A stretch of DNA of 64,000 nucleotides from the NCBI GenBank assembly GCA_038893995.1, contig JAWAQK010000001.1, positions 61,956 to 125,955 on the forward strand, written 5' to 3'. Below are positions 7,470 through 17,576 of this stretch, piece after piece; position 1 is the first letter of the stretch; the number at the start of each line of letters is the position of its first letter. A model generated the notes under the pieces. That model saw nothing but the letters and a program-made list of their open reading frames with translations, did not search any database and had not been told where the DNA came from. Origin of the DNA: Candidatus Thorarchaeota archaeon (lineage in GTDB: Archaea; Asgardarchaeota; Thorarchaeia; Thorarchaeales; Thorarchaeaceae). The translations under genes were made by a program, and so were the position numbers.

Positions 7470-9708
7470 CGTCAGCCTGGATGACGAAAAAGGGGACCTG
7501 ATCCTGTGGATAAGGGATGAGACAGGGACCAAGGGACTCAGATATCGTCGATTCAGACCGTCCCTGTTTGTGAAGACAGACCTGATCGACAGACCGGAGT
7601 TTCCGGTCAGAGAACTGATCAGGAGAGTCAGCGAGCATCCCAGAGTTCTCGGCGTTCGGCTTGTCAAGAGATACCTCTCCGTATATGACGAACATAGGAG
7701 CAAAGTACTACAGGTATTCGTCAGAGGAAACTCATTGCAGAGAGTTGCAGAAGACCTGGAAACATTGCCAGGGGCAATCGTGTTTCATGCAGACCTAGAT
7801 GCCGTACAGCAGTTCTTCATCGACAGAGAGATCTTTCCCTTCAGTCTCATCGAGTATGAGACGGATGGCATCGAGTTGTTCGACATCAGGTGCCTCAGCA
7901 GGAGGGAGGAGGTAGAATACGAAGTGCCCCCGCTCAGAGAGATACAGATTGAGCCATACATGGAAACGAGAGGCCCCTTTCCCAGAATCGAGGATCCAAT
8001 TCACCACATTCGAGTTAGATTCGACAATCGGACTCTCTACGTGAGAGGACACAGCGAGAGAGAGACACTGTGTCTGTTTCAGGAGGTAATTGACCGCATA
8101 GACCCCGATATCATCATCACACGTGGCGGAGACGATGGAGTGCTAAGATATCTCAGCATGAGATACAGGGTCAACAACATGGCCCTGAGACTCTCAAGAG
8201 ACGGAAGGCCGCTCATCATCAATGAGAGAGAACCGTCTTCATTCTGGCAGTACAATAGGATCGTCTTCAGACCGGGCAATCAGGTCATGCTCAGAGGCAG
8301 GATACATATAGATATGGCAGATAGTCTCTACTACGCGCCCTCCAGGGTGGAGGGGGTGATTGAGGGCTGTAGACTTGCGATGGCACCTCCCCAGAGAGTT
8401 GCACGTATGTCCATCGGAAGCGTCAACGCGGCAATGCAGTACTACACCGCAATGAAGAGGGAGATCCTCATTCCCCCAGTCAAGCGCAATCCCGAGTATC
8501 TCAAGACAGTGGAGAGGCTCCTCAATCTTGACAGGGGAGGGCTCATACTTCAGCCACGTCCAGACATCTATGAAAATGTGGGGGAGTTTGATTTCTCATC
8601 GATGTATCCGACAATAATGATCACCAAGAACATCAGCCCTGAAACTGTCTGCACACGAACCACCTGTCCCTACGATAAGAAATACTGCATCGATGTTCCA
8701 GAACTCGACTACAAGATATGTGGCCGAAAGAGGGGACTTGTGCCCGAGTCATTAGAGCTAGTGGTCAAGAAGAGAAATCAGCTCAAGAGGCTCATGCTTG
8801 ACGGAAAGGACGTCAGACGGCATGGAGTCATCCAGAACACCCTCAAGGGAATACTGGTCTCCTGTTTTGGATACCTCGGATTTAGAAACGCCCGATTTGG
8901 CCGTGTTGAGGCGCATGCTGCAGTGACGGCCTTTGCGCGAGACATTCTGCTCAGGACGCAGGAGATTGCGGAGGAGAGAGGCCTTGAGTTGGTGCATGGG
9001 ATCGTCGATTCTCTCTGGGTACACTCGAGAACAGAGTTGGGTCACCAAGACCTGTTGGAGTTCGCCAGACAAGTCACCGAGTGCGTCGGCATTGAGATGA
9101 CGCTGAAGGGAGTCTACAGATGGATGGTCGTGCCATCATCAAGACTGCATCCAGTGGTAGCACCCATGAATCGTTACTACGGAGTATATCGGAATGGTTC
9201 AATAAAGGTCAGGGGTATTGAGGCCAGACGCAGAGACACTTGTCTCTACGTGAGGGACTGTCAAAAGGAGATGATCCGGACGCTTGCACATGCACCAGAC
9301 AGAGATGCTCTTATCCGGGCAATACCCGATGCGAGGGCGGTCTGTGAGGAATTCATCCGGAAACTGAGGGAGGGAGATGTTGACATTAGAGACCTGGTCC
9401 TGCAGTCAAGACTGACACATCATCCGGATGAGTATCATGGTACTACAAGAGTGGCGGTGGCAGCCCGCCAGTTAGCAGGCATGGGACGGAGACTCTACCC
9501 TGGACAAAGCGTGCGATACATAATGGTGGAGTCCAAGTCAAGGAACCCGGCTCGACGGGTGAGGGCCATCGAGCTGGTAGATGAATCCACAAGATATGAC
9601 CCGGACGCATATTCGGAACTCTGTATCCGTGCCTTCGAGAATCTGATACCGGCCCAGTATCTCGACTCATCATCAGAACTGGCTCACTCGGAGACCAGAT
9701 TGACCTGA
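7435..9708 (+). CDS. polB2: Family B DNA polymerase, archaeal PolB2 group
   Basis: Motif A FDFSSMYP, motif B K..LVSCFGYLG, motif C degenerate HGIVDS; exonuclease motifs eroded. Confidence 0.9.
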   Translation: MPAAKKRGWLLDVSLDDEKGDLILWIRDETGTKGLRYRRFRPSLFVKTDLIDRPEFPVRELIRRVSEHPRVLGVRLVKRYLSVYDEHRSKVLQVFVRGNSLQRVAEDLETLPGAIVFHADLDAVQQFFIDREIFPFSLIEYETDGIELFDIRCLSRREEVEYEVPPLREIQIEPYMETRGPFPRIEDPIHHIRVRFDNRTLYVRGHSERETLCLFQEVIDRIDPDIIITRGGDDGVLRYLSMRYRVNNMALRLSRDGRPLIINEREPSSFWQYNRIVFRPGNQVMLRGRIHIDMADSLYYAPSRVEGVIEGCRLAMAPPQRVARMSIGSVNAAMQYYTAMKREILIPPVKRNPEYLKTVERLLNLDRGGLILQPRPDIYENVGEFDFSSMYPTIMITKNISPETVCTRTTCPYDKKYCIDVPELDYKICGRKRGLVPESLELVVKKRNQLKRLMLDGKDVRRHGVIQNTLKGILVSCFGYLGFRNARFGRVEAHAAVTAFARDILLRTQEIAEERGLELVHGIVDSLWVHSRTELGHQDLLEFARQVTECVGIEMTLKGVYRWMVVPSSRLHPVVAPMNRYYGVYRNGSIKVRGIEARRRDTCLYVRDCQKEMIRTLAHAPDRDALIRAIPDARAVCEEFIRKLREGDVDIRDLVLQSRLTHHPDEYHGTTRVAVAARQLAGMGRRLYPGQSVRYIMVESKSRNPARRVRAIELVDESTRYDPDAYSELCIRAFENLIPAQYLDSSSELAHSETRLT

Positions 9709-11039
9709 GATAGGATCAATGGCCTGAGCTCACGGAGAGGTATTCCCGTCTCAAGGGAGATCTTACCCACATCATCTGCCTCAGGTTTGATGTTGACAAC
9801 GCTACCATCTGGGGAACGTGAGACCTTGACACGGACCATGTACTCCCTCTCGTCAATCCTGACCCTGCATACCATGGACTCTCTGAACGTCTTCAGACGT
9901 TGCCAGCTGGTGTAACGGATGCCCAAGGTCCCAAGGTGGTGTATCATCAACCTTGCAATTGTCTTCAGTCCGGTCCTAGGAGCCACGACCTGAACTATTG
10001 TACACGGACGATTCTTCTTGCCGTAGGCCGGGATCATCACTACATCGTAGGCCAGCCCCTCGGATAGGAGAAAGTCGAACAGCTGGCCCATTACTTCGCC
10101 GTCCACATCGTCCACTGTGGACTCAATGACTACGACCTCGTCGGTGTCCCACGCGTCGAGGGGCTCAGTCGTTTCAGGGACCGCCTCCTTAGCGGTCACG
10201 GCGGCCGAGACAGGGGCTCCAGTTGCCTTGGCACGGAGACGTGGTTCGACCTCTGTAGATTCTACGCTCGGCACCTCGATGTCGCCGATGAGTATTCTCA
10301 TCGTGTTAGGAAGGGTACCAAGGTCCCTTGCGCCAAAACCAACGCCCTGTCGCTTGATCATGAAACCCTCCAGACTATCGACATAAGACTGTACCAGTGC
10401 AGCAATGAGGGCGGCGCCAGTTGGTGTTAGCACCTCGGTCTTTGCATCACCAGGGTGATGGGGTATATTGTGCTTTGTCAGGATCTCAACGACCGCTGGC
10501 ACTGGGACCTGCATCGTGCCATGTTCAGTCACAATCTGGCCACTGCCAACCGCAACATGCGTAGCCATGAACTTCGCTCGGTCAATCAGACGGGCCCTCT
10601 CCAAGAGATACACAGTCCCCAGGATGTCAAGCATCGTGTCAATCGAGCCAGTCTCATGCAGCTTCAGATTCTCAATCGTGGTACGGTGTGCCTTCATCTC
10701 AGCCTCGAGCAATATCTCAAGCGCGGTGCGTGCGATCTTCTTGGCTGCGGGGGACAACTCGAGTTCCTCGCTGACTGTTGAGAGCATTCCATGCAATGAG
10801 CCCGGAGAAAAGCGGACTCCCCTGTCACACGACACGTCAATTCTCTTGCCCGACCCTGATTCCGAGACCCGTGAGTTGACCCTGACTCGAAGTTGTGGGT
10901 CATATATCAGGAGACTTGCAGCCACGGGAACCAACGCCTGGTCCTCCCCGAGGAGGTCTACCAATGCAGACAGGAACATGTCTCCAGATGCTCCAGCCCT
11001 GGAAACATCAAAGAGGACTATACTCTCCGGCAAGCACAC
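9684..11039 (-). CDS. larC: Nickel-pincer cofactor nickel insertase LarC family
   Basis: GASGDMFLSAL, HETGSIDT, HGTMQVPVPA, TPTGAAL, STVDD, KKNRP, KPEADD. Confidence 0.9.
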   Translation of the reverse strand: MCLPESIVLFDVSRAGASGDMFLSALVDLLGEDQALVPVAASLLIYDPQLRVRVNSRVSESGSGKRIDVSCDRGVRFSPGSLHGMLSTVSEELELSPAAKKIARTALEILLEAEMKAHRTTIENLKLHETGSIDTMLDILGTVYLLERARLIDRAKFMATHVAVGSGQIVTEHGTMQVPVPAVVEILTKHNIPHHPGDAKTEVLTPTGAALIAALVQSYVDSLEGFMIKRQGVGFGARDLGTLPNTMRILIGDIEVPSVESTEVEPRLRAKATGAPVSAAVTAKEAVPETTEPLDAWDTDEVVVIESTVDDVDGEVMGQLFDFLLSEGLAYDVVMIPAYGKKNRPCTIVQVVAPRTGLKTIARLMIHHLGTLGIRYTSWQRLKTFRESMVCRVRIDEREYMVRVKVSRSPDGSVVNIKPEADDVGKISLETGIPLRELRPLILSQVNLVSE

Positions 11040-11198
11040 ATTGCTCCTTGGGGTGTGCGGCGGGCGCGCAGTTTCGATGCTAATCGGTCCTAAATAACAT
11101 TATGACCGGGCCTCGACACTAGGATTGACAGACGCCAAACGATATCAGGCATGATGAGATGGTGCCCCTCAGGGAGCCATCACCTGTCTGGCAGTTCC

Positions 11199-11993
11199 TC
11201 AGTCATGATGTAATGTCTGCCGATTTCCCCGGCGCCACTGCTCAAATATGGCCATGTACATACACTCATCTGGGGGAATCCACATCTCAGAGGAATCGAA
11301 TGAGCGGTCCACAAACTCAACGGGAGCGTCTCTCACAAGCACTGCAGGAACGGACTCATCGGACTCTCCCATCACTGCTGTACAGGCAGAGGCGATATTG
11401 TCAGCAACGGCCCTCCGAGTGATCCTGAGACGATTCCCGAAGAGGTCCTGTCGACCCCGATCGTCAGCTACCGGGCGAAATCCGGAGACTCCCAACGCCA
11501 TGCCTATGTTACCGAGCCGCAGGGGCTGAGTCCGACTGTCAATCACCATCACGCCTATGGATTTGCCGAACCGTCTCCGGACCTCCTGCCTGATTCTCTC
11601 TGCGCTTCCAGCGGGGTCTCTGGGTAACAGACATGCAAACCCTGGAGGCACATTCGACTTGTCGATACCAGCATTGGCCATCAGCGTGTTGTCCTTGATC
11701 GTGAGGACCACGTGAGGAATCCCGCCCAGGATCTCGTCAGACTCGCGCAGGATCAGCTCGGCGACGGCCGGCAGGAGATCGTACTTCTTCGCGAGCTCCT
11801 CGGCGCGGGGAGATACTGTCACCGTGGATAGTCGAATGACGCATCCCTCAGTCGTCCCAAGCGGAGTCTCAGCGACAACTAGAATGTCACGATCCTGAAA
11901 CTCGTACCCCGCCCGGTGCATTCCTTCGGTTATCACGTCAAGAATGTTGTCAGTAGGAGTTATGATGCGTGTCCTTATTGGCAAGACCAGCAA
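11199..11993 (-). CDS. cofE: Coenzyme F420-0:L-glutamate ligase family
   Basis: ANAGIDKSN, LLPRDP, IDSRTQPLRLG, DDRGRQDLFG, MGESDESVP. Confidence 0.88.
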   Translation of the reverse strand: MLVLPIRTRIITPTDNILDVITEGMHRAGYEFQDRDILVVAETPLGTTEGCVIRLSTVTVSPRAEELAKKYDLLPAVAELILRESDEILGGIPHVVLTIKDNTLMANAGIDKSNVPPGFACLLPRDPAGSAERIRQEVRRRFGKSIGVMVIDSRTQPLRLGNIGMALGVSGFRPVADDRGRQDLFGNRLRITRRAVADNIASACTAVMGESDESVPAVLVRDAPVEFVDRSFDSSEMWIPPDECMYMAIFEQWRRGNRQTLHHD

Positions 11994-12153
11994 TCTTGGA
12001 CCCTCGACTCCGTACGACAGGAATCTCTAGAAAAAGGCACCGTCATGCAGGTACTATTGCCGCGCAACTCGTATGCCGACGTGGCTACGCGATCAGGCGG
12101 GTTGTGTCAGGGAGGTATGTCTATATCGATGATGCTGCTGGGGGAGCAACAAC

Positions 12154-13071
12154 ATGTTCGTGTTCAAGAGAGAGCAGACAGTCTTTGACGCAGGAGGTGT
12201 CAGGATAGGCGGTCAGCCAGGTGAGAATCCCACAGTCCTCGTTGGAGGTCTGTTCTTCAAGGGTCAGCCGATAGTTGAGGATGTCAGCAGTGGGAGGTTT
12301 GATCAGGCACTGGCTGCTGAATGGATATCGACTGCGATGGGCATGTCCCAGAGGACTGGGCATCCGCTCATCCTGCAGGTCTATGGCGCCACGCCAGAGG
12401 CAATGGAGAGGCATCTACAGTGGGTCACAGAGAAGTTCGATGGCCCCTTCATGTTTGAGTCTACCAACAGTGATGCAAGGAAGCGAGGTATCACCTACTG
12501 CAGTGAAGTCGGACTCGAGAACAGGACCATTTACAACTCGGTCAACATGTCCATGAGGGATGACGAGAGAGAAACTCTGAGGAACAGTCCGATACACATG
12601 GCGGTCATCCTTGGATGGTCACCCCGGATTGTCTCAATGCTGGACAGGATGGAACTGATCAGGTCCACATTGAGTGAGGCGGAGGGCCTGGGAATCGATG
12701 TCTTCCTCGTGGATCCAGCCGTGATGCCAGTCGGAGCGGGCTATGGGAGTGAGTACAGGACCCTGATCTCCATCAAGGCAGAACTTGGACTCCCGACCTG
12801 TCTTGGGCCTCACAATGCGGTGTCGTCCTGGAGCTACCTCAGACAACACAGTTCCGACAATAGAGACATGTATCTTGCATCAATCGCTGCGTCTGTCGCT
12901 GCGGCTCAGGTCTGTGCCGCGGACTGCATAATGTTCGGTTCTCTGCAGTGGGCGAGGGAGATATTCGCATCAGTGGCACTCGTTCAGAACGCCATAGTGA
13001 CAGCTGTGGGAGAGGCTGACGAGACACTCGGGCTGAAGCGAGATCTGTTCGAACCACCAACATGCAGATAG
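12154..13071 (+). CDS. mtrH: MtrH-like methyltransferase, divergent copy
   Basis: IGGQPGENPTVL N-terminus, IYNSVN, GPHNA.SSW; PFLIDST motif changed to PFMFEST. Confidence 0.85.
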   Translation: MFVFKREQTVFDAGGVRIGGQPGENPTVLVGGLFFKGQPIVEDVSSGRFDQALAAEWISTAMGMSQRTGHPLILQVYGATPEAMERHLQWVTEKFDGPFMFESTNSDARKRGITYCSEVGLENRTIYNSVNMSMRDDERETLRNSPIHMAVILGWSPRIVSMLDRMELIRSTLSEAEGLGIDVFLVDPAVMPVGAGYGSEYRTLISIKAELGLPTCLGPHNAVSSWSYLRQHSSDNRDMYLASIAASVAAAQVCAADCIMFGSLQWAREIFASVALVQNAIVTAVGEADETLGLKRDLFEPPTCR

Positions 13072-13084
13072 GGGGTGCTGAGAC

Positions 13085-13777
13085 ATGACCAATTCTGACA
13101 AGCGAAAGTGGCCGCCGGTACCAGGTGACTACCGTGTCGGGAATGCCAGCAGCCCTGTCGCCATCTGCACACTGGGAAAATGGATTGATGTCGATGTCGA
13201 CTACGCGATTCTTGGCACCTGCAAGACAGAGAACATAGGAATTGAACGGATCATCGTAAATACCATATCAAATCCTCACATCCGATTCTTCATTCTTGCA
13301 GGCCCCGAGGTCCCAGGACACAGGACCGGTGCCTCGATAAGAGCCCTGTTTCAGAACGGGGTCGATCCCAGAGACCGCAGAATAGTAGGAGCCGAGGGCG
13401 CAATACCCTACATCGAGAACATTCCACTCGAGGCAATCGAACGTTTCCGGAGGCAGCTTACGCTCTGCGACATGTTAGATGTGGTAGAACCCGAGAGAAT
13501 CAGGGCGGCGGCAGTGGCCCTTATCTCAAGACCAGTGGAACCTCTCGCAGAGGAACCGATGTGGGTTGACTTTGGGTCAGGCAAGCGAAGTACGCAGCAT
13601 GCGATGCAGGCAGGGAGTGTCTCTTTAGTCCCCGAGTTAGGACTGGTCCTGGATCCGCGCATATCCATGGTATCCAGACAGAGCCGAAGTGCAACGGTGA
13701 CCCAGCATCCGTCACCAGCGGGCGTGGAGATTCAGACTAGGGATGGGGGAACACTACTGATGGCAAGGGGGTATTGA
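13085..13777 (+). CDS. mtrA: MtrA corrinoid protein, no TM anchor, MtrB-like C-terminal tail
   Basis: WPPVPGDY, CKTENIGIERII.N.ISNP.IRF, EVPGH (cobalt His), GAEGAIPYIEN. Confidence 0.92.
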   Translation: MTNSDKRKWPPVPGDYRVGNASSPVAICTLGKWIDVDVDYAILGTCKTENIGIERIIVNTISNPHIRFFILAGPEVPGHRTGASIRALFQNGVDPRDRRIVGAEGAIPYIENIPLEAIERFRRQLTLCDMLDVVEPERIRAAAVALISRPVEPLAEEPMWVDFGSGKRSTQHAMQAGSVSLVPELGLVLDPRISMVSRQSRSATVTQHPSPAGVEIQTRDGGTLLMARGY

Positions 13778-13780
13778 GAG

Positions 13781-14716
13781 TTGTTTGTGTTCGAGAGAGA
13801 ACAATACATCTACAACATCGGAGGCGTCAGGATAGGGGGCAACCCGGGCGAGAGAGCGACTGTACTGGCTGGCACCATATTCTATTCGGGAGACAAGACT
13901 GTCAGCGACCCCAGTGCGGGTGTGTTCGACAGGACCGCGGCCGAGACACAGATCCGGAACCAGGATGCGATCTCAGAGACTACGGGAAATCCTGCACTGG
14001 TACAGGTATTCGCAGAGTCGGAGAGCGCCATGACGAGGTATATCGACTTCGTGACCGAGATGACAGACGCTCCGTTCCTCATTGACTCCACGGATCCGAA
14101 GGTCCGGATAGCCGGTCTCAGACACGCAGAAGAGGTGGGAGTCATAGGTCGGGCCATCTACAACTCGCTCAATGTCAGCATCAACACAGAAGAGTTGCAG
14201 ACTCTCTCCGAACTGAGACCAGAGGCCGCGATCATATTGGCTTTCAATCCTGCCGACACGTCAATTGCTGGAAGACGTGCAGTGCTAGAGGAACCGTATG
14301 CTGAGTATGGCGAGGGTCTGCTATCACTTGCCAAGAGGGTCGGAATAACAAAGCCCCTCGTCGATACCGCAACTACTGCTATGGGCGCAGGAGCAGGTCC
14401 ATCTGTGTCTTTCGTGTTCGTGGCCAAGAGCGTCTATGGTCACCCAACAGGATCTGGAATCCACAACGCTCCATCATCGTGGCCATGGCTGAGAGCGCAC
14501 AAGAAGGTCAACCGTGCGGCCTTTGAGGCATGTGATGTCGCATCGGCACTGCTCGTACATTCTATGGGGGCGGACTTCATCTTGTACGGGCCCATCGTGA
14601 ATGCAGACAGGGTCTTTCCTGTGGTGGCCATGGCTGATGTCCTGGCCGCAGAGTCTCTGTCTACGGAGTTTGGTCTGGGGCCACCTGAGAATCACCCATT
14701 CCGAAGGCTCCTATGA
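13781..14716 (+). CDS. mtrH: Tetrahydromethanopterin S-methyltransferase subunit H family
   Basis: IGGNPGE..TVLAGTIFY, PFLIDST, IYNSLN, GSGIHNAPSSW, GADFILYGP. Confidence 0.92.
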   Translation: MFVFEREQYIYNIGGVRIGGNPGERATVLAGTIFYSGDKTVSDPSAGVFDRTAAETQIRNQDAISETTGNPALVQVFAESESAMTRYIDFVTEMTDAPFLIDSTDPKVRIAGLRHAEEVGVIGRAIYNSLNVSINTEELQTLSELRPEAAIILAFNPADTSIAGRRAVLEEPYAEYGEGLLSLAKRVGITKPLVDTATTAMGAGAGPSVSFVFVAKSVYGHPTGSGIHNAPSSWPWLRAHKKVNRAAFEACDVASALLVHSMGADFILYGPIVNADRVFPVVAMADVLAAESLSTEFGLGPPENHPFRRLL

Positions 14717-14738
14717 CAGATGTCGAGGAATCCGGTCA

Positions 14739-16175
14739 ATGAGGTACAGGATCATTCACCCGCGCGGCATAAGCATGCTCTCGGTCAGGCTGGGCTCCTT
14801 CTTCACTGTTGCGTCGGTTGAACTCGGCAATACCACGACCAAGTGTATCGTGGTCACCACTAATCTGAAGACGGCCGAGGTATTTGAGATTGGGAAGGAG
14901 GTGCGGATGACGCGTGACATCAGATTACCATGGGACGGGGAGACACCATTTGGGCATACAATCACCCGCAGGCCTCTCACGAGAGAGGCTGTATCGGAGA
15001 TGGTGAGTGACATCCTGACAACAACGGTGAAGCGCAATGGTATGGATATGAAGACTGATCTTGACTTCGTCGTACGCTCTACAGGCGTTACGGCGGGATT
15101 CGCACATCCTGATGAAGTAGATGGGATGATCAGAGCGCTTGCAGACGGTTGTCTGAATGCGGGCGTGCCACCTGGAAAGATGATGGCCGCAATGTCAGTA
15201 ATCAACCTCAACCCACGATTGCGCTCCCACAGCTGGTTGAACAAGGTGCACTTCGATGGTGCAGTTGCGAGCTGTCTTCCACCGGCAGGCAGACAGGTGG
15301 TGGCAAATGAGATGGAGGGCGAGCTTGTCACTGCCGGAATAAAGGGGGCCGCCAAGGGTACGGGTATTGACTTCCGCAATCCAGTCGCCACGATGGACTT
15401 TGGAACGACCCTCGCAGGGAGAATCACAGACGACTCCTATCCGTACGCAAACACAGTGGCCTCCTTTGTTGGCCTTGCAGGAGCCATTCCTGACGCCGTT
15501 GTGAGAGGGACCGGTTTCGTAGACAGGAACGAGGGATGCACCATCGACCTCACCTTACCGCACAAGAGAGAGGAGATAGAGGAATCGTCTTCGTGGTTGG
15601 AGGAGGCCAGCAGGATCATTACGGTCGATAGGGTGCCCAGGGGAGTGGAGAGGTTCGGGACTGTACCCGTAGACATGAGGGCTGCAGAGGAGGCAGACCT
15701 GACCTTGCTCGGAGTCGATGTGGGGTGCAATGGATCTAGACTAGCTGATCTTGGTGAGATAGGACTCAGCATTGTTCAGGAGAAGGGCCCAGAAATCTTG
15801 CACTCATTTCTTGATCATCTTCAGGCACGCATAGTCCACAGACTGATAGAACTCGCTGAGTCAGAGGGACTGGTCAACGGACGCACATCGATAGGCCTCA
15901 CAGGACGGGCGATAACAACTGGAATGAAACCTGAGCTGATCAGCAGCTGGCTGGAACGGTCTGGCGTATTGCCCCAGAGAGAGCAGGACATCGTAGTCTT
16001 TGTAGAAGATGGCCTCGCATTTGGCGCAGCTGTGGCCGCCAGGTGCATGAACTCACTGGGAACGCCTCATGAGCCAATGGGAGGACGTAGGGGAGACAGA
16101 TGCATAATGGGGGCGCGCATGGCAATCCAGTCAGGCAGGGCTGGGGAGGTCAGGAGGAACTCGGCAGACAACTGA
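14739..16175 (+). CDS. Methanogenesis marker protein 14 family (ASKHA-fold ATPase-like)
   Basis: SVELGNTTTKC, FVVRSTGV, ANEMEGEL, DFGTTLAG, TGRA, GAAVAARCMNSLG; start uncertain. Confidence 0.85.
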   Translation: MRYRIIHPRGISMLSVRLGSFFTVASVELGNTTTKCIVVTTNLKTAEVFEIGKEVRMTRDIRLPWDGETPFGHTITRRPLTREAVSEMVSDILTTTVKRNGMDMKTDLDFVVRSTGVTAGFAHPDEVDGMIRALADGCLNAGVPPGKMMAAMSVINLNPRLRSHSWLNKVHFDGAVASCLPPAGRQVVANEMEGELVTAGIKGAAKGTGIDFRNPVATMDFGTTLAGRITDDSYPYANTVASFVGLAGAIPDAVVRGTGFVDRNEGCTIDLTLPHKREEIEESSSWLEEASRIITVDRVPRGVERFGTVPVDMRAAEEADLTLLGVDVGCNGSRLADLGEIGLSIVQEKGPEILHSFLDHLQARIVHRLIELAESEGLVNGRTSIGLTGRAITTGMKPELISSWLERSGVLPQREQDIVVFVEDGLAFGAAVAARCMNSLGTPHEPMGGRRGDRCIMGARMAIQSGRAGEVRRNSADN

Positions 16176-16214
16176 ACAAGTGCCGAAAAGTGCAGGCCCC
16201 TCTCCGGGATCATT

Positions 16215-17576
16215 TCAGGTCAGATAGGACTTCTCAGGAGGAGAATCGATGCACTTCAGACTACCTTCGGGCAGCCCCCTGGCTAGGTGCTCAGCAACAT
16301 CCTTGCTGAGGATGACCTCAACAAGAATCTGATCCTCGCCGAACTCCTCTCGCTCAATCCGAGCGACCTCATGAATCCACGACAACAACCTCATGCCCTC
16401 AGAGCCATATGGGAGGGTCACCACAAATCTCTGTTCGGAGGGAAGCATCGATATGATCTGATCGATCAGAAGATCGATGTTGTGACCAGTCTTCGCTGAC
16501 ACCGGTACCACTTCTCTCGAGAAATGGCTGAGCAGTTGTAATCGGTCGGGCACTAGGGCGGGGTCTATCATATCGATCTTGTTGAGTACGATTGCCAGGT
16601 TCGGTGTGAGGACTCCGATCGACTCGAGTGTTGAGAAACATGCCTCCGTCTTTCGGACCATCTCGTTCGAGGGCTCCGAACCATCAACAACGAGCAGGAC
16701 CACATCTGCAGTTCCGATCTCCCTCAGGGTCGTGTTGAATGCCTGAAGTAGGGAACGAGGGAGATCGCTCACAAAACCGACGGAGTCTGTGACCACAATG
16801 TTCCTTCCTGTGACACTCATCCTCGACGTCTTTGTCGACAGCGTGGTGAACATCTGGTCACTCACTTCAGCATCAGACTGTGTCAGAGCCCTATGCAATG
16901 TACTCTTGCCCGCGTTGGTATAGCCTGCGAGTGCTACCTCGTAGTATCCCTCACGGATCCGCTTCTTTCTCTTCAGATCCTCTGCATCCGAGATCGTTCT
17001 GAGCTTGTCTCTTATGATGGCGATACGCCTTCTGACCTCCATCATCCTGAGGTTGAGAATGTCTTCACCGGCACCTACCTGCTGCCCAACCGGACGAGCA
17101 CCTGTATGCTCCCTCTGCAGACGTTTCCGCAGCTGGTGACGGATGAAGGGCAGTTCATATCTCAGCCGGGCCTCCTCGATCTGAAGCTTCGCCTGGGGTG
17201 TCCTCGCGTGGAGATCAAAGATCTCGAGGATGACCTGACCCCTGTTCCGGACATCAGTCTTCCACGCTCTCATAAGACGATACATCTGGCTTGATGTGAG
17301 ATCCGGAGACACTAACACTACGTCCACCTCGTTGTTCCTGATGTACTCTCCAATCTCATCCACCTTACCAGCACCAATTCCGTACCTCGTCTGATGTCGG
17401 CCCACTATGTCAAACCGACCTACCACGTCGTACCCTGCTGTCGATGCAAGTGCCTCAAACTCAGCAAGTAGATTCTCCGAGGCAGGGTTCCTGCGCTGTA
17501 TGATGATGGCTCTCTGTCGTTCCACACGGAACGGACCCATGGATACTGTCTTAAGTAGTTCGGGCCGGGACACCAC
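16215..17576 (-). CDS. hflX: GTPase HflX
   Basis: ILEIF..HART.QAKLQ, GYTNAGKST, FTTL, DSVGF, NKID, SAK. Confidence 0.95.
   Translation of the reverse strand: MVSRPELLKTVSMGPFRVERQRAIIIQRRNPASENLLAEFEALASTAGYDVVGRFDIVGRHQTRYGIGAGKVDEIGEYIRNNEVDVVLVSPDLTSSQMYRLMRAWKTDVRNRGQVILEIFDLHARTPQAKLQIEEARLRYELPFIRHQLRKRLQREHTGARPVGQQVGAGEDILNLRMMEVRRRIAIIRDKLRTISDAEDLKRKKRIREGYYEVALAGYTNAGKSTLHRALTQSDAEVSDQMFTTLSTKTSRMSVTGRNIVVTDSVGFVSDLPRSLLQAFNTTLREIGTADVVLLVVDGSEPSNEMVRKTEACFSTLESIGVLTPNLAIVLNKIDMIDPALVPDRLQLLSHFSREVVPVSAKTGHNIDLLIDQIISMLPSEQRFVVTLPYGSEGMRLLSWIHEVARIEREEFGEDQILVEVILSKDVAEHLARGLPEGSLKCIDSPPEKSYLT

Follow-up and report, generated by a model that had tools for sequence, protein, structure and literature searches.

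A conserved Thorarchaeial operon pairing two MtrH paralogues and an anchorless MtrA with methanogenesis marker 14: a possible membrane-free derivative of Mtr

Energy conservation in methanogenesis centres on methyl-tetrahydromethanopterin:coenzyme M methyltransferase (Mtr), an enzyme that functions only while its corrinoid subunit, MtrA, is in the Co(I) state. Genomic studies have connected a second protein, methanogenesis marker 14, with Mtr since 2014 without assigning it a function. Here, we describe a four-gene operon, mtrH′-mtrA-mtrH-marker 14, in a 64,000-nucleotide stretch of a Thorarchaeota contig (GenBank assembly GCA_038893995.1, contig JAWAQK010000001.1; the whole stretch is referred to as the window). 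We read it tentatively, with a little less than an even chance of being right, as encoding a “head-only” derivative of Mtr that is cytoplasmic and conserved in Thorarchaeota, in which a tethered corrinoid shuttle would work between two pterin sites and be serviced by marker 14.

Two earlier studies bear directly on these genes. Borrel et al. (2014) found arCOG04866, the orthologous group of marker 14, near mtr in several orders, noted its absence from Methanomassiliicoccales, and suggested that it is involved in Mtr function (PMC4153887). Adam et al. (2022), who call the same protein m26, tied it to Mtr and reported Thorarchaeial MtrAH without the other subunits (PMC9635834). The core observation was therefore already published, and in both papers the tie between m26/DUF2114 and Mtr rests on distribution, phylogeny, and synteny (PMC4153887, PMC9635834). 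Our literature search for DUF2114, marker 14, arCOG04866, or an MtrA activase returned only these two association papers; a 2026 preprint on the [Fe8S9C] cluster of Mtr mentions neither marker 14 nor activation, and we found no paper on rescue of the oxidised Mtr cofactor. An initial annotation of the window, made from the sequence alone, had suggested that marker 14 might be the ATP-dependent reactivase of this MtrA and that the family would thereby gain a function; the link to Mtr had been made before (PMC4153887, PMC9635834), but we found no paper proposing the reactivase role. As far as the parts of the two studies consulted here extend, they describe neither divided roles for MtrH and MtrH′, nor an anchorless MtrA with an MtrB-like tail, a metVF linkage, an ASKHA (acetate and sugar kinase/Hsc70/actin) fold, or a specific function for m26. 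New here, then, are the MtrB-like tail on an anchorless MtrA, the divided roles of the two MtrH proteins, the linkage to metVF, which this genome has lost, the absence of a tie to carbon monoxide dehydrogenase/acetyl-CoA synthase, and the fold and cysteine pattern of marker 14.

The gene content given in the initial annotation, with two MtrH paralogues around MtrA and marker 14 behind them, agrees with the open reading frames (ORFs) and with Pfam and NCBIfam scores. The four genes lie on one strand with intergenic gaps of 13, 3, and 22 nucleotides (nt). MtrH scores 348 bits on PF02007 and 356 bits on TIGR01114, over the cut-off of 271, while MtrH′ scores 248 bits on PF02007 and, at 241 bits on TIGR01114, falls under it. 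MtrA matches PF04208 with 174 bits, and marker 14 is a full-length member of its family, with 598 bits on TIGR03285 (cut-off 274) and 612 bits on PF09887 (DUF2114). The assembly, which we call G000, is a Thorarchaeota metagenome-assembled genome (MAG) of 2.33 Mb in 82 contigs, 91% complete, and its closest matches among database proteins carry the name Candidatus Thorarchaeota. A search of the whole genome found a single MtrA, and no MtrH copies other than the two in this operon.

To place the operon among its relatives, we used a sample of 41 Asgard genomes, of which 26, including G000, belong to the same family (f1), and one, G033, to another Asgard family. These relatives were found through a genome search, since a locus search with marker 14 as the query matched only two contigs, both from Methanobacteriaceae. 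McrA, the mark of a partnership with methyl-coenzyme M reductase, was not found in the 91% complete G000 MAG, nor was MtrE, and MtrD was not found in any of the 26 family genomes, which include single-contig and 10-contig assemblies; MtrC was not searched separately. Because MtrD was found in none of the 26, the membrane-free module is a property of the whole sampled family, and the description of the module as soluble and devoid of membrane subunits stands.

MtrA retains the corrinoid ligand and has lost the anchor, both as first annotated. The ligand motif is PEVPGH, whose histidine (His79) is invariant in the family and aligns with that of the EVQGH motif of canonical MtrA. Over the final 60 residues, the most hydrophobic Kyte-Doolittle window of 19 residues reaches 1.1 here, no more than 1.4 in the other MtrA proteins of the family, and 1.8 in G033, whereas the C-terminal transmembrane helix of Methanobacteriaceae MtrA gives 2.2-2.55. 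By this measure MtrA is without a transmembrane helix, and thus without the helix that MtrA contributes to the MtrABFG stalk of the Mtr complex. In its place is a conserved tail of ~57 residues, with the consensus V.LLPE.G..LDP..SLV...HPS.V.VE...E.GT.L.GKE. When a profile of 19 Thorarchaeial tails was run against 1298 ORFs, it matched only two, both of them Methanobacteriaceae MtrB (E = 1.7e-5 and 4.5e-5; next best E = 1), and the match lies at the MtrB N-terminus. In the Mtr complex of Methanosarcina mazei, MtrB residues 1-23 form a sheet that docks the MtrH dimer, with a salt bridge between MtrB Glu9 and MtrH Arg211 (PMC12774963). The tail of the Thorarchaeial MtrA thus resembles a copy of the MtrB N-terminal docking strand. 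A Pfam scan of the tails of 21 members gave weak matches to MtrB in 4 of them (best E = 0.035) and weak matches to MtrF in 2 (best E = 0.0017). An MtrF-like part in the tail was not confirmed, and those matches may stem from the transmembrane helices of the two canonical sequences.

The two MtrH proteins are 38% identical, and among solved structures both come closest to M. mazei MtrH (9QTP), MtrH with 250 bits and MtrH′ with 188 bits. We mapped 20 MtrH and 19 MtrH′ orthologues onto it, using M. mazei numbering and the residues named in the structure paper. N129, D196, H229, and N230 are invariant in both paralogues. At other positions the two part company: D103 is kept in MtrH and replaced by Glu in all 19 MtrH′ sequences, T32 is Thr or Ser in MtrH and Gly in all 19 MtrH′, and the K242/K243 patch that holds the tail of tetrahydromethanopterin (H4MPT) is kept in MtrH and lost in MtrH′. 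The docking arginine, R211, shows the opposite pattern, being Arg in 19/19 MtrH′ sequences and lost from MtrH (Ala, Ser, or Gly in 20/20). This residue pattern speaks of a division of roles and not of decay, with the MtrA tail probably docking on MtrH′. The most likely arrangement is an MtrH′/MtrH heterodimer in which MtrH′ holds the MtrA tail and each protomer carries a different pterin-type site. As for known relatives that use tetrahydrofolate (H4F), MtrH′ was considered as an H4F-type enzyme on the grounds of likeness to MtgA and rejected as such, given that it is less MtgA-like than MtrH (136 versus 188 bits against the MtgA structure 6SJ8). Neither protein is a member of the MtgA family model NF047990 (165 bits for MtrH′ and 206 bits for MtrH, far under the cut-off of 550).

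The same residues could also belong to an MtrH′ that is purely a structural docking subunit, the module then acting as a methyl-H4MPT:cob(I)amide methyltransferase whose methyl-Co-MtrA is used by an unlinked acceptor, such as a methionine synthase of the core-MetE type or a methylcobamide:thiol methyltransferase of the URO-D type. Of the two paralogues, MtrH′ alone has the MtrB-docking arginine, and it no longer has the H4MPT-tail patch; just one protomer of the M. mazei MtrH dimer is thought to serve MtrA (PMC12774963); archaeal core-MetE requires a methyl-corrinoid protein donor of unidentified nature (PMC7005905); and G000 has a URO-D-family gene. However, that gene belongs to a separate operon, which supplies a B12 protein and a RACo for it, and neither MetE (PF01717) nor the homocysteine domain of MetH (PF02574) was found in the G000 genome. 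Moreover, MtrH′ shows no variation at its pterin residues, and D103E and T32G are fixed across ~16 genera, so the active site appears to have been selected and altered rather than to have decayed. We consider a purely structural MtrH′ unlikely, if still worth keeping in mind.

Conservation of the operon as a unit argues for the preferred reading of a head-only Mtr derivative. The module is present in 26/26 family genomes, and the order mtrH′-mtrA-mtrH-marker 14 is identical in all 19 relatives first compared and in G041 (20/20 loci). Amino-acid identity to the relatives, which span ~16 genera, is 48-68%, and all four ORFs are intact in each relative examined. Of 24 family relatives, 23 have a DUF2114 match, the exception being one MAG, G021. 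In G033, mtrH′, mtrA, and mtrH lie together, and marker 14 is on a separate short contig, beside cofE and without mtr genes there.

Comparison of the relatives gives the ancestral order arcTGT (on the minus strand), hflX, metV, metF, mtrH′, mtrA, mtrH, marker 14, cofE, larC. The two genes 5′ of mtrH′ in the relatives encode a PF12225 (MetV-type) protein and a methylenetetrahydrofolate reductase (MTHFR, MetF). MetF is single-copy and is found in 24 of the 26 family genomes, in each of which it precedes MtrA on the same strand at a distance of about one gene. When positions 9684-17576 of the window are set against loci L016-L035 and L052, the four-gene block proves to be inverted between cofE and hflX, which is why the larC-like gene and cofE lie on the opposite strand here. 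The metVF genes were not found anywhere in the G000 assembly, and G041 has lost them independently, with no inversion. As the four genes have stayed together through the inversion, and through the loss of metVF here and in G041, they behave as one selected unit, of which MetVF is a frequent but dispensable partner. In nearly all relatives, cofE and the larC-like nickel-insertion gene lie directly 3′ of marker 14.

Marker 14 belongs to a small family, with 121 cluster representatives of DUF2114 among 1.84 billion proteins. No solved structure gave a meaningful match to it by sequence, whether a single sequence or a profile was used. The structural matches of an AlphaFold2 model built from 41 sequences (predicted local distance difference test 91.3; predicted template modelling score 0.91) were ASKHA-fold proteins only, at Z = 16-18. 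Tied in this range were the putative sugar kinase MK0840, AnmK, activators of the HgdC/BcrAD type, type III pantothenate kinase, FtsA, and Kae1, whereas RACo (4C1N) ranked 15th in Foldseek and fell outside the top 50 by Z. On this confident model, marker 14 is predicted to be an ASKHA-fold ATPase no nearer to RACo than to other ASKHA proteins. The two phosphate motifs that had first suggested this fold, ELGNTTTK and DFGTT, are both present, and the nucleotide motifs (E16/K23, D208/T211/G215, and G377/R378) are conserved. The likeness to RamA and RACo originally drawn from them holds at the level of the fold and goes no further, since many ASKHA families are tied and marker 14 has neither a RACo Pfam domain nor a Fer2 or Fer4 iron-sulphur ferredoxin domain; the Pfam scan gave DUF2114 only. 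In full-length DUF2114 proteins, Cys126, Cys424, and Cys443 are almost always kept, and Cys24 is common (residues counted from the start at 14775), and these four conserved cysteines may form a metal or Fe-S site. A distant subgroup of ~400 amino acids (aa) is without the C-terminal cysteine pair.

The initial annotation had called for marker 14 to be profiled against MtrA. Across the 41 Asgard genomes, marker 14 was found only where there is a canonical-type MtrA (family f1 except G021, plus G033). A further 11 genomes positive for methenyl-H4MPT cyclohydrolase (Mch), 3 of them with MtrA-like fusions, gave no match to it. This distribution supports the view that marker 14 tracks canonical-type MtrA, and not the use of H4MPT in general. 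In Methanobacteriaceae, marker 14 lies ~1.5 kb downstream of mtrH; in one such MAG (L004, 274-7350), a single strand carries mtrD, mtrC, mtrB, mtrA, (mtrF, mtrG), mtrH, a Na+/Ca2+ exchanger, a universal stress protein, and marker 14. The Thorarchaeial operon can be seen as a natural deletion experiment, in which MtrA, MtrH, and the docking strand are left and marker 14 has remained with them. Since it survives with these parts only, its partner would be the cytoplasmic corrinoid head, and not the pump or the coenzyme M (CoM) chemistry. Complex prediction with alignments for marker 14 and MtrA gave a score of 0.31 against a mark of 0.32, and 0.00 in a second run, and so speaks neither for nor against binding.

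The remainder of the G000 genome offers an analogy. On one contig (G000:C25, L048 5743-9374) there is an operon of a RACo-type activase (Fer2, RACo middle, and ASKHA domains), a URO-D-family methyltransferase, and a B12-binding corrinoid protein; genes for FAD-binding and CCG/4Fe-4S proteins come after this operon. Elsewhere (G000:C21, L049 6483-7721), the genome has another RACo-like gene, which lacks a ferredoxin domain. On PF14574 (RACo_C_ter), these true RACo genes reach 201-265 bits, whereas marker 14 matches neither PF14574 nor PF17651 (Raco_middle). Because each type of corrinoid protein here adjoins an ASKHA gene, a role of marker 14 as activase or chaperone is supported, though not proven; by analogy, a reactivase is plausible.

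Another role that would suit its fold is that of a small-molecule kinase or an enzyme of cofactor biosynthesis, its place beside mtr and cofE then reflecting cofactor supply. MK0840, a putative sugar kinase, and AnmK are indeed among the top structural matches, and cofE follows marker 14 directly in the relatives and adjoins it on the short G033 contig that has no mtr genes. However, the kinase ties are no stronger than those to the HgdC/BcrAD-type activators, the inversion in this genome parted marker 14 from cofE and left it with mtrH, and marker 14 was found only in genomes with canonical-type MtrA and not in the 11 other Mch-positive Asgard genomes. We regard such a role as quite unlikely.

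Turning to metabolism, formyl-H4F synthetase (FTHFS/Fhs) is encoded in 25 of the 26 family genomes, G000 included, and Mch in all 26, with two copies in G000. In contrast to these, the acetyl-CoA synthase CdhC is present in 9/26 and was not found in G000, and a bona fide Mer is present in 16/26; G000 has only a 186-bit Mer-like gene, which is below the cut-off. What does not vary across the family is that one-carbon (C1) carrier pathways based on H4MPT and on H4F occur together. The module is not tied to acetyl-CoA synthesis, because CdhC occurs in only 9 of the genomes that carry it.

These results bear on the scheme put forward in the initial annotation, taken here to mean that MtrH′ demethylates a non-pterin donor and that the methyl group passes via Co-MtrA and MtrH to a pterin, feeding acetyl-CoA synthesis through the Wood-Ljungdahl pathway. 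Two methyltransferases flanking one corrinoid protein do fit a scheme of two half-reactions, and it has been guessed in the literature that MtrAH outside methanogens funnels methyl groups into this pathway (PMC9635834). The Wood-Ljungdahl part fails as a general role, as the module is in 26/26 genomes and CdhC in 9, and neither MetF, bona fide Mer, nor CdhC was found in G000. The non-pterin donor, for its part, is made improbable by N129, D196, H229, and N230, which are kept in every MtrH′ orthologue along with the fixed D103E and T32G changes, and by the characterised members of the MtrH family considered here (MtrH and MtgA), which act on pterins. Since the pterin-site residues are kept, the donor or acceptor at MtrH′ is most likely another pterin, and we judge the scheme as a whole very unlikely. 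Finally, although Adam et al. (2022) call Thorarchaeial MtrAH and m26 remnants of ancestral methanogenesis (PMC9635834), a decaying, functionless remnant of Mtr is hardly credible and effectively refuted by conservation, the ORFs being intact in all relatives examined at 48-68% identity across ~16 genera, the catalytic and ligand residues invariant, the paralogue-specific substitutions fixed, and the block having outlived an inversion and two independent deletions of its neighbours.

The coordinates of the operon and its upstream flank are collected in the table; downstream of the block, Pfam and NCBIfam identify hflX and an archaeosine tRNA transglycosylase gene. Two start sites deserve comment. 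The TTG start of mtrH lies 3 nt past the mtrA stop, and the first residue aligns likewise in the orthologues. For marker 14, a long ORF from 14601 overlaps mtrH, but the match to the family starts at ORF residue 67, and the gene is called with 478 aa in the database, for which reasons we place the start at ATG 14739.

Table. Features of the mtrH′-mtrA-mtrH-marker 14 locus, in window coordinates
Feature	Position	Strand	Description
larC-like	9684..11039	-	Pfam and NCBIfam; upstream flank of the four-gene block
cofE	11199..11993	-	Pfam and NCBIfam; upstream flank of the four-gene block
Intergenic region cofE/mtrH′ (divergent genes)	11994..12153	.	160 nt; presumed operon promoter region, from ORF coordinates
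mtrH′	12154..13071	+	305 aa; diverged MtrH paralogue; pterin-type TIM-barrel methyltransferase by family; PF02007
mtrA	13085..13777	+	230 aa; corrinoid protein; PF04208; His79 codon 13319-13321
MtrA soluble C-terminal tail, residues 174-230	13604..13774	+	first part, VSLVPELGLVLDP, resembles the MtrB N-terminus
mtrH	13781..14716	+	311 aa, TTG start; canonical-type methyl-H4MPT:cob(I)amide methyltransferase subunit; PF02007, TIGR01114
marker 14 (DUF2114, m26, arCOG04866)	14739..16175	+	478 aa from ATG 14739; alternative start 14775; putative ASKHA-fold ATPase

Returning to the head-only derivative of Mtr, we propose that it would work as follows. MtrA would bind a cobamide through its conserved histidine and carry, instead of the membrane helix, a soluble tail with the MtrB-like strand. 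MtrH′, which has kept the arginine that pairs with the docking-strand glutamate and in which the pterin pocket is systematically altered, would hold this tail, while MtrH would contribute the canonical H4MPT pocket with the Lys patch for the H4MPT tail. So tethered, MtrA could swing its cobamide between two oppositely facing TIM-barrel sites, much as methanogen MtrA does between MtrH and MtrCDE, and methyl transfer would run in either direction, with methyl-H4MPT at the MtrH site and a second pterin at the MtrH′ site. Given metVF in the ancestral operon, and both C1-carrier pathways across the family, that second pterin would most likely be H4F. Marker 14 would be an ASKHA ATPase dedicated to MtrA, most likely for the ATP-dependent return of Co(II) to Co(I) or else for loading of the cofactor, a role that would parallel that of the RACo-type gene beside the conventional B12-domain protein of the same genome.

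A number of observations weigh against this proposal. The H4F specificity of MtrH′ is a guess, because MtrH′ is no closer to the H4F enzyme MtgA than is MtrH, and on 6SJ8 scores lower by the figures given above. The module has been kept without MetF in both G000 and G041, the former also being without a bona fide Mer. As to marker 14, it lacks the ferredoxin or Fe-S domain of RACo and RamA, its structure ties with kinases, Kae1, and FtsA as well as with HgdC-type activators, and G000 already has two RACo-type genes. Furthermore, the distant ~400-aa subgroup of DUF2114 exists, and Adam et al. (2022) report a divergent m26 in a lineage without any Mtr (PMC9635834).

One can go further, and suppose that in every methanogen with Mtr, marker 14 acts as an ATP-dependent activator or chaperone dedicated to the cobamide of MtrA, and that in Thorarchaeota it services a tethered MtrA(B′)-MtrH/MtrH′ machine exchanging methyl groups directly between the H4MPT and H4F pools. 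This extended proposal is possible, but we hold it to be doubtful as it stands. Older biochemical work described an activation of Mtr that depends on ATP and reductant, and if the proposal were true, marker 14 would be the protein behind it. Likewise, Asgard archaea carry both carrier systems, and if methyl groups passed directly between H4MPT and H4F, their C1 metabolism would gain a new link. A soluble four-protein system should be far easier to reconstitute than a membrane complex, and the main value of the operon lies in offering such a simple system for testing the function of marker 14 and the possible methyl bridge.

How does the Thorarchaeial module compare with systems already described? 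With the cytoplasmic head of methanogen Mtr, made up of the MtrA corrinoid domain, the MtrH dimer, and the MtrB N-terminal strand (M. mazei 9QTP/9QTS and Methanothermobacter marburgensis 8Q3V), it shares the histidine ligand of MtrA, the pterin residues and H4MPT-tail patch of MtrH, a PE-containing docking strand and its partner arginine R211, and a marker 14 encoded with it or nearby. It differs in that the docking strand is on MtrB there and fused to MtrA here, and in that an MtrH homodimer there is replaced by two diverged paralogues here. The module is also distinguished by its lack of an MtrA membrane helix and, within the scope of the searches described above, of MtrE and McrA (G000) and MtrD (26 family genomes), with MtrC not separately searched. 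The second half-reaction here cannot be Na+-coupled transfer to CoM at MtrCDE. As for MtxXAH, an operon of MtrA and MtrH paralogues in methanogens, the MtrA described here scores 157 bits on the MtxA-type model NF010654, under the cut-off of 279.

With RACo and RamA (COG3894), the module has in common an ASKHA-fold ATPase beside its corrinoid protein, marker 14 resembling them in fold only; it departs from them in that marker 14 has no RACo Pfam, Fer2, or 4Fe-4S domain, and RACo is outside its top 50 by Z. The MtgABC system of Desulfitobacterium (MtgA 6SJ8/6SK4) likewise uses a soluble TIM barrel of the MtrH family and moves a methyl group between a corrinoid protein and a pterin. Its carrier, however, has a B12-binding domain, whereas the carrier here is of the MtrA type and is served by two MtrH-family enzymes, with no substrate-specific MT1.

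Within the Asgard archaea, MtrA-like domains also occur in ORFs of 511-586 aa that are probably MtrAH fusions (G030:C2:24108-24626, G036:C1:239432-239935, G040:C12:34869-35366, and G033:C139:6359-6853), and marker 14 was not found in G030, G036, or G040. The MtrA-like and MtrAH fusions described from Atabeyarchaeia and Freyarchaeia (PMC11291895) are, like the Thorarchaeial module, non-methanogenic, membrane-free methyltransferases derived from Mtr. They are phylogenetically distinct from it, however, the Thorarchaeial module being made up of separate genes, with a canonical-type MtrA and with marker 14.

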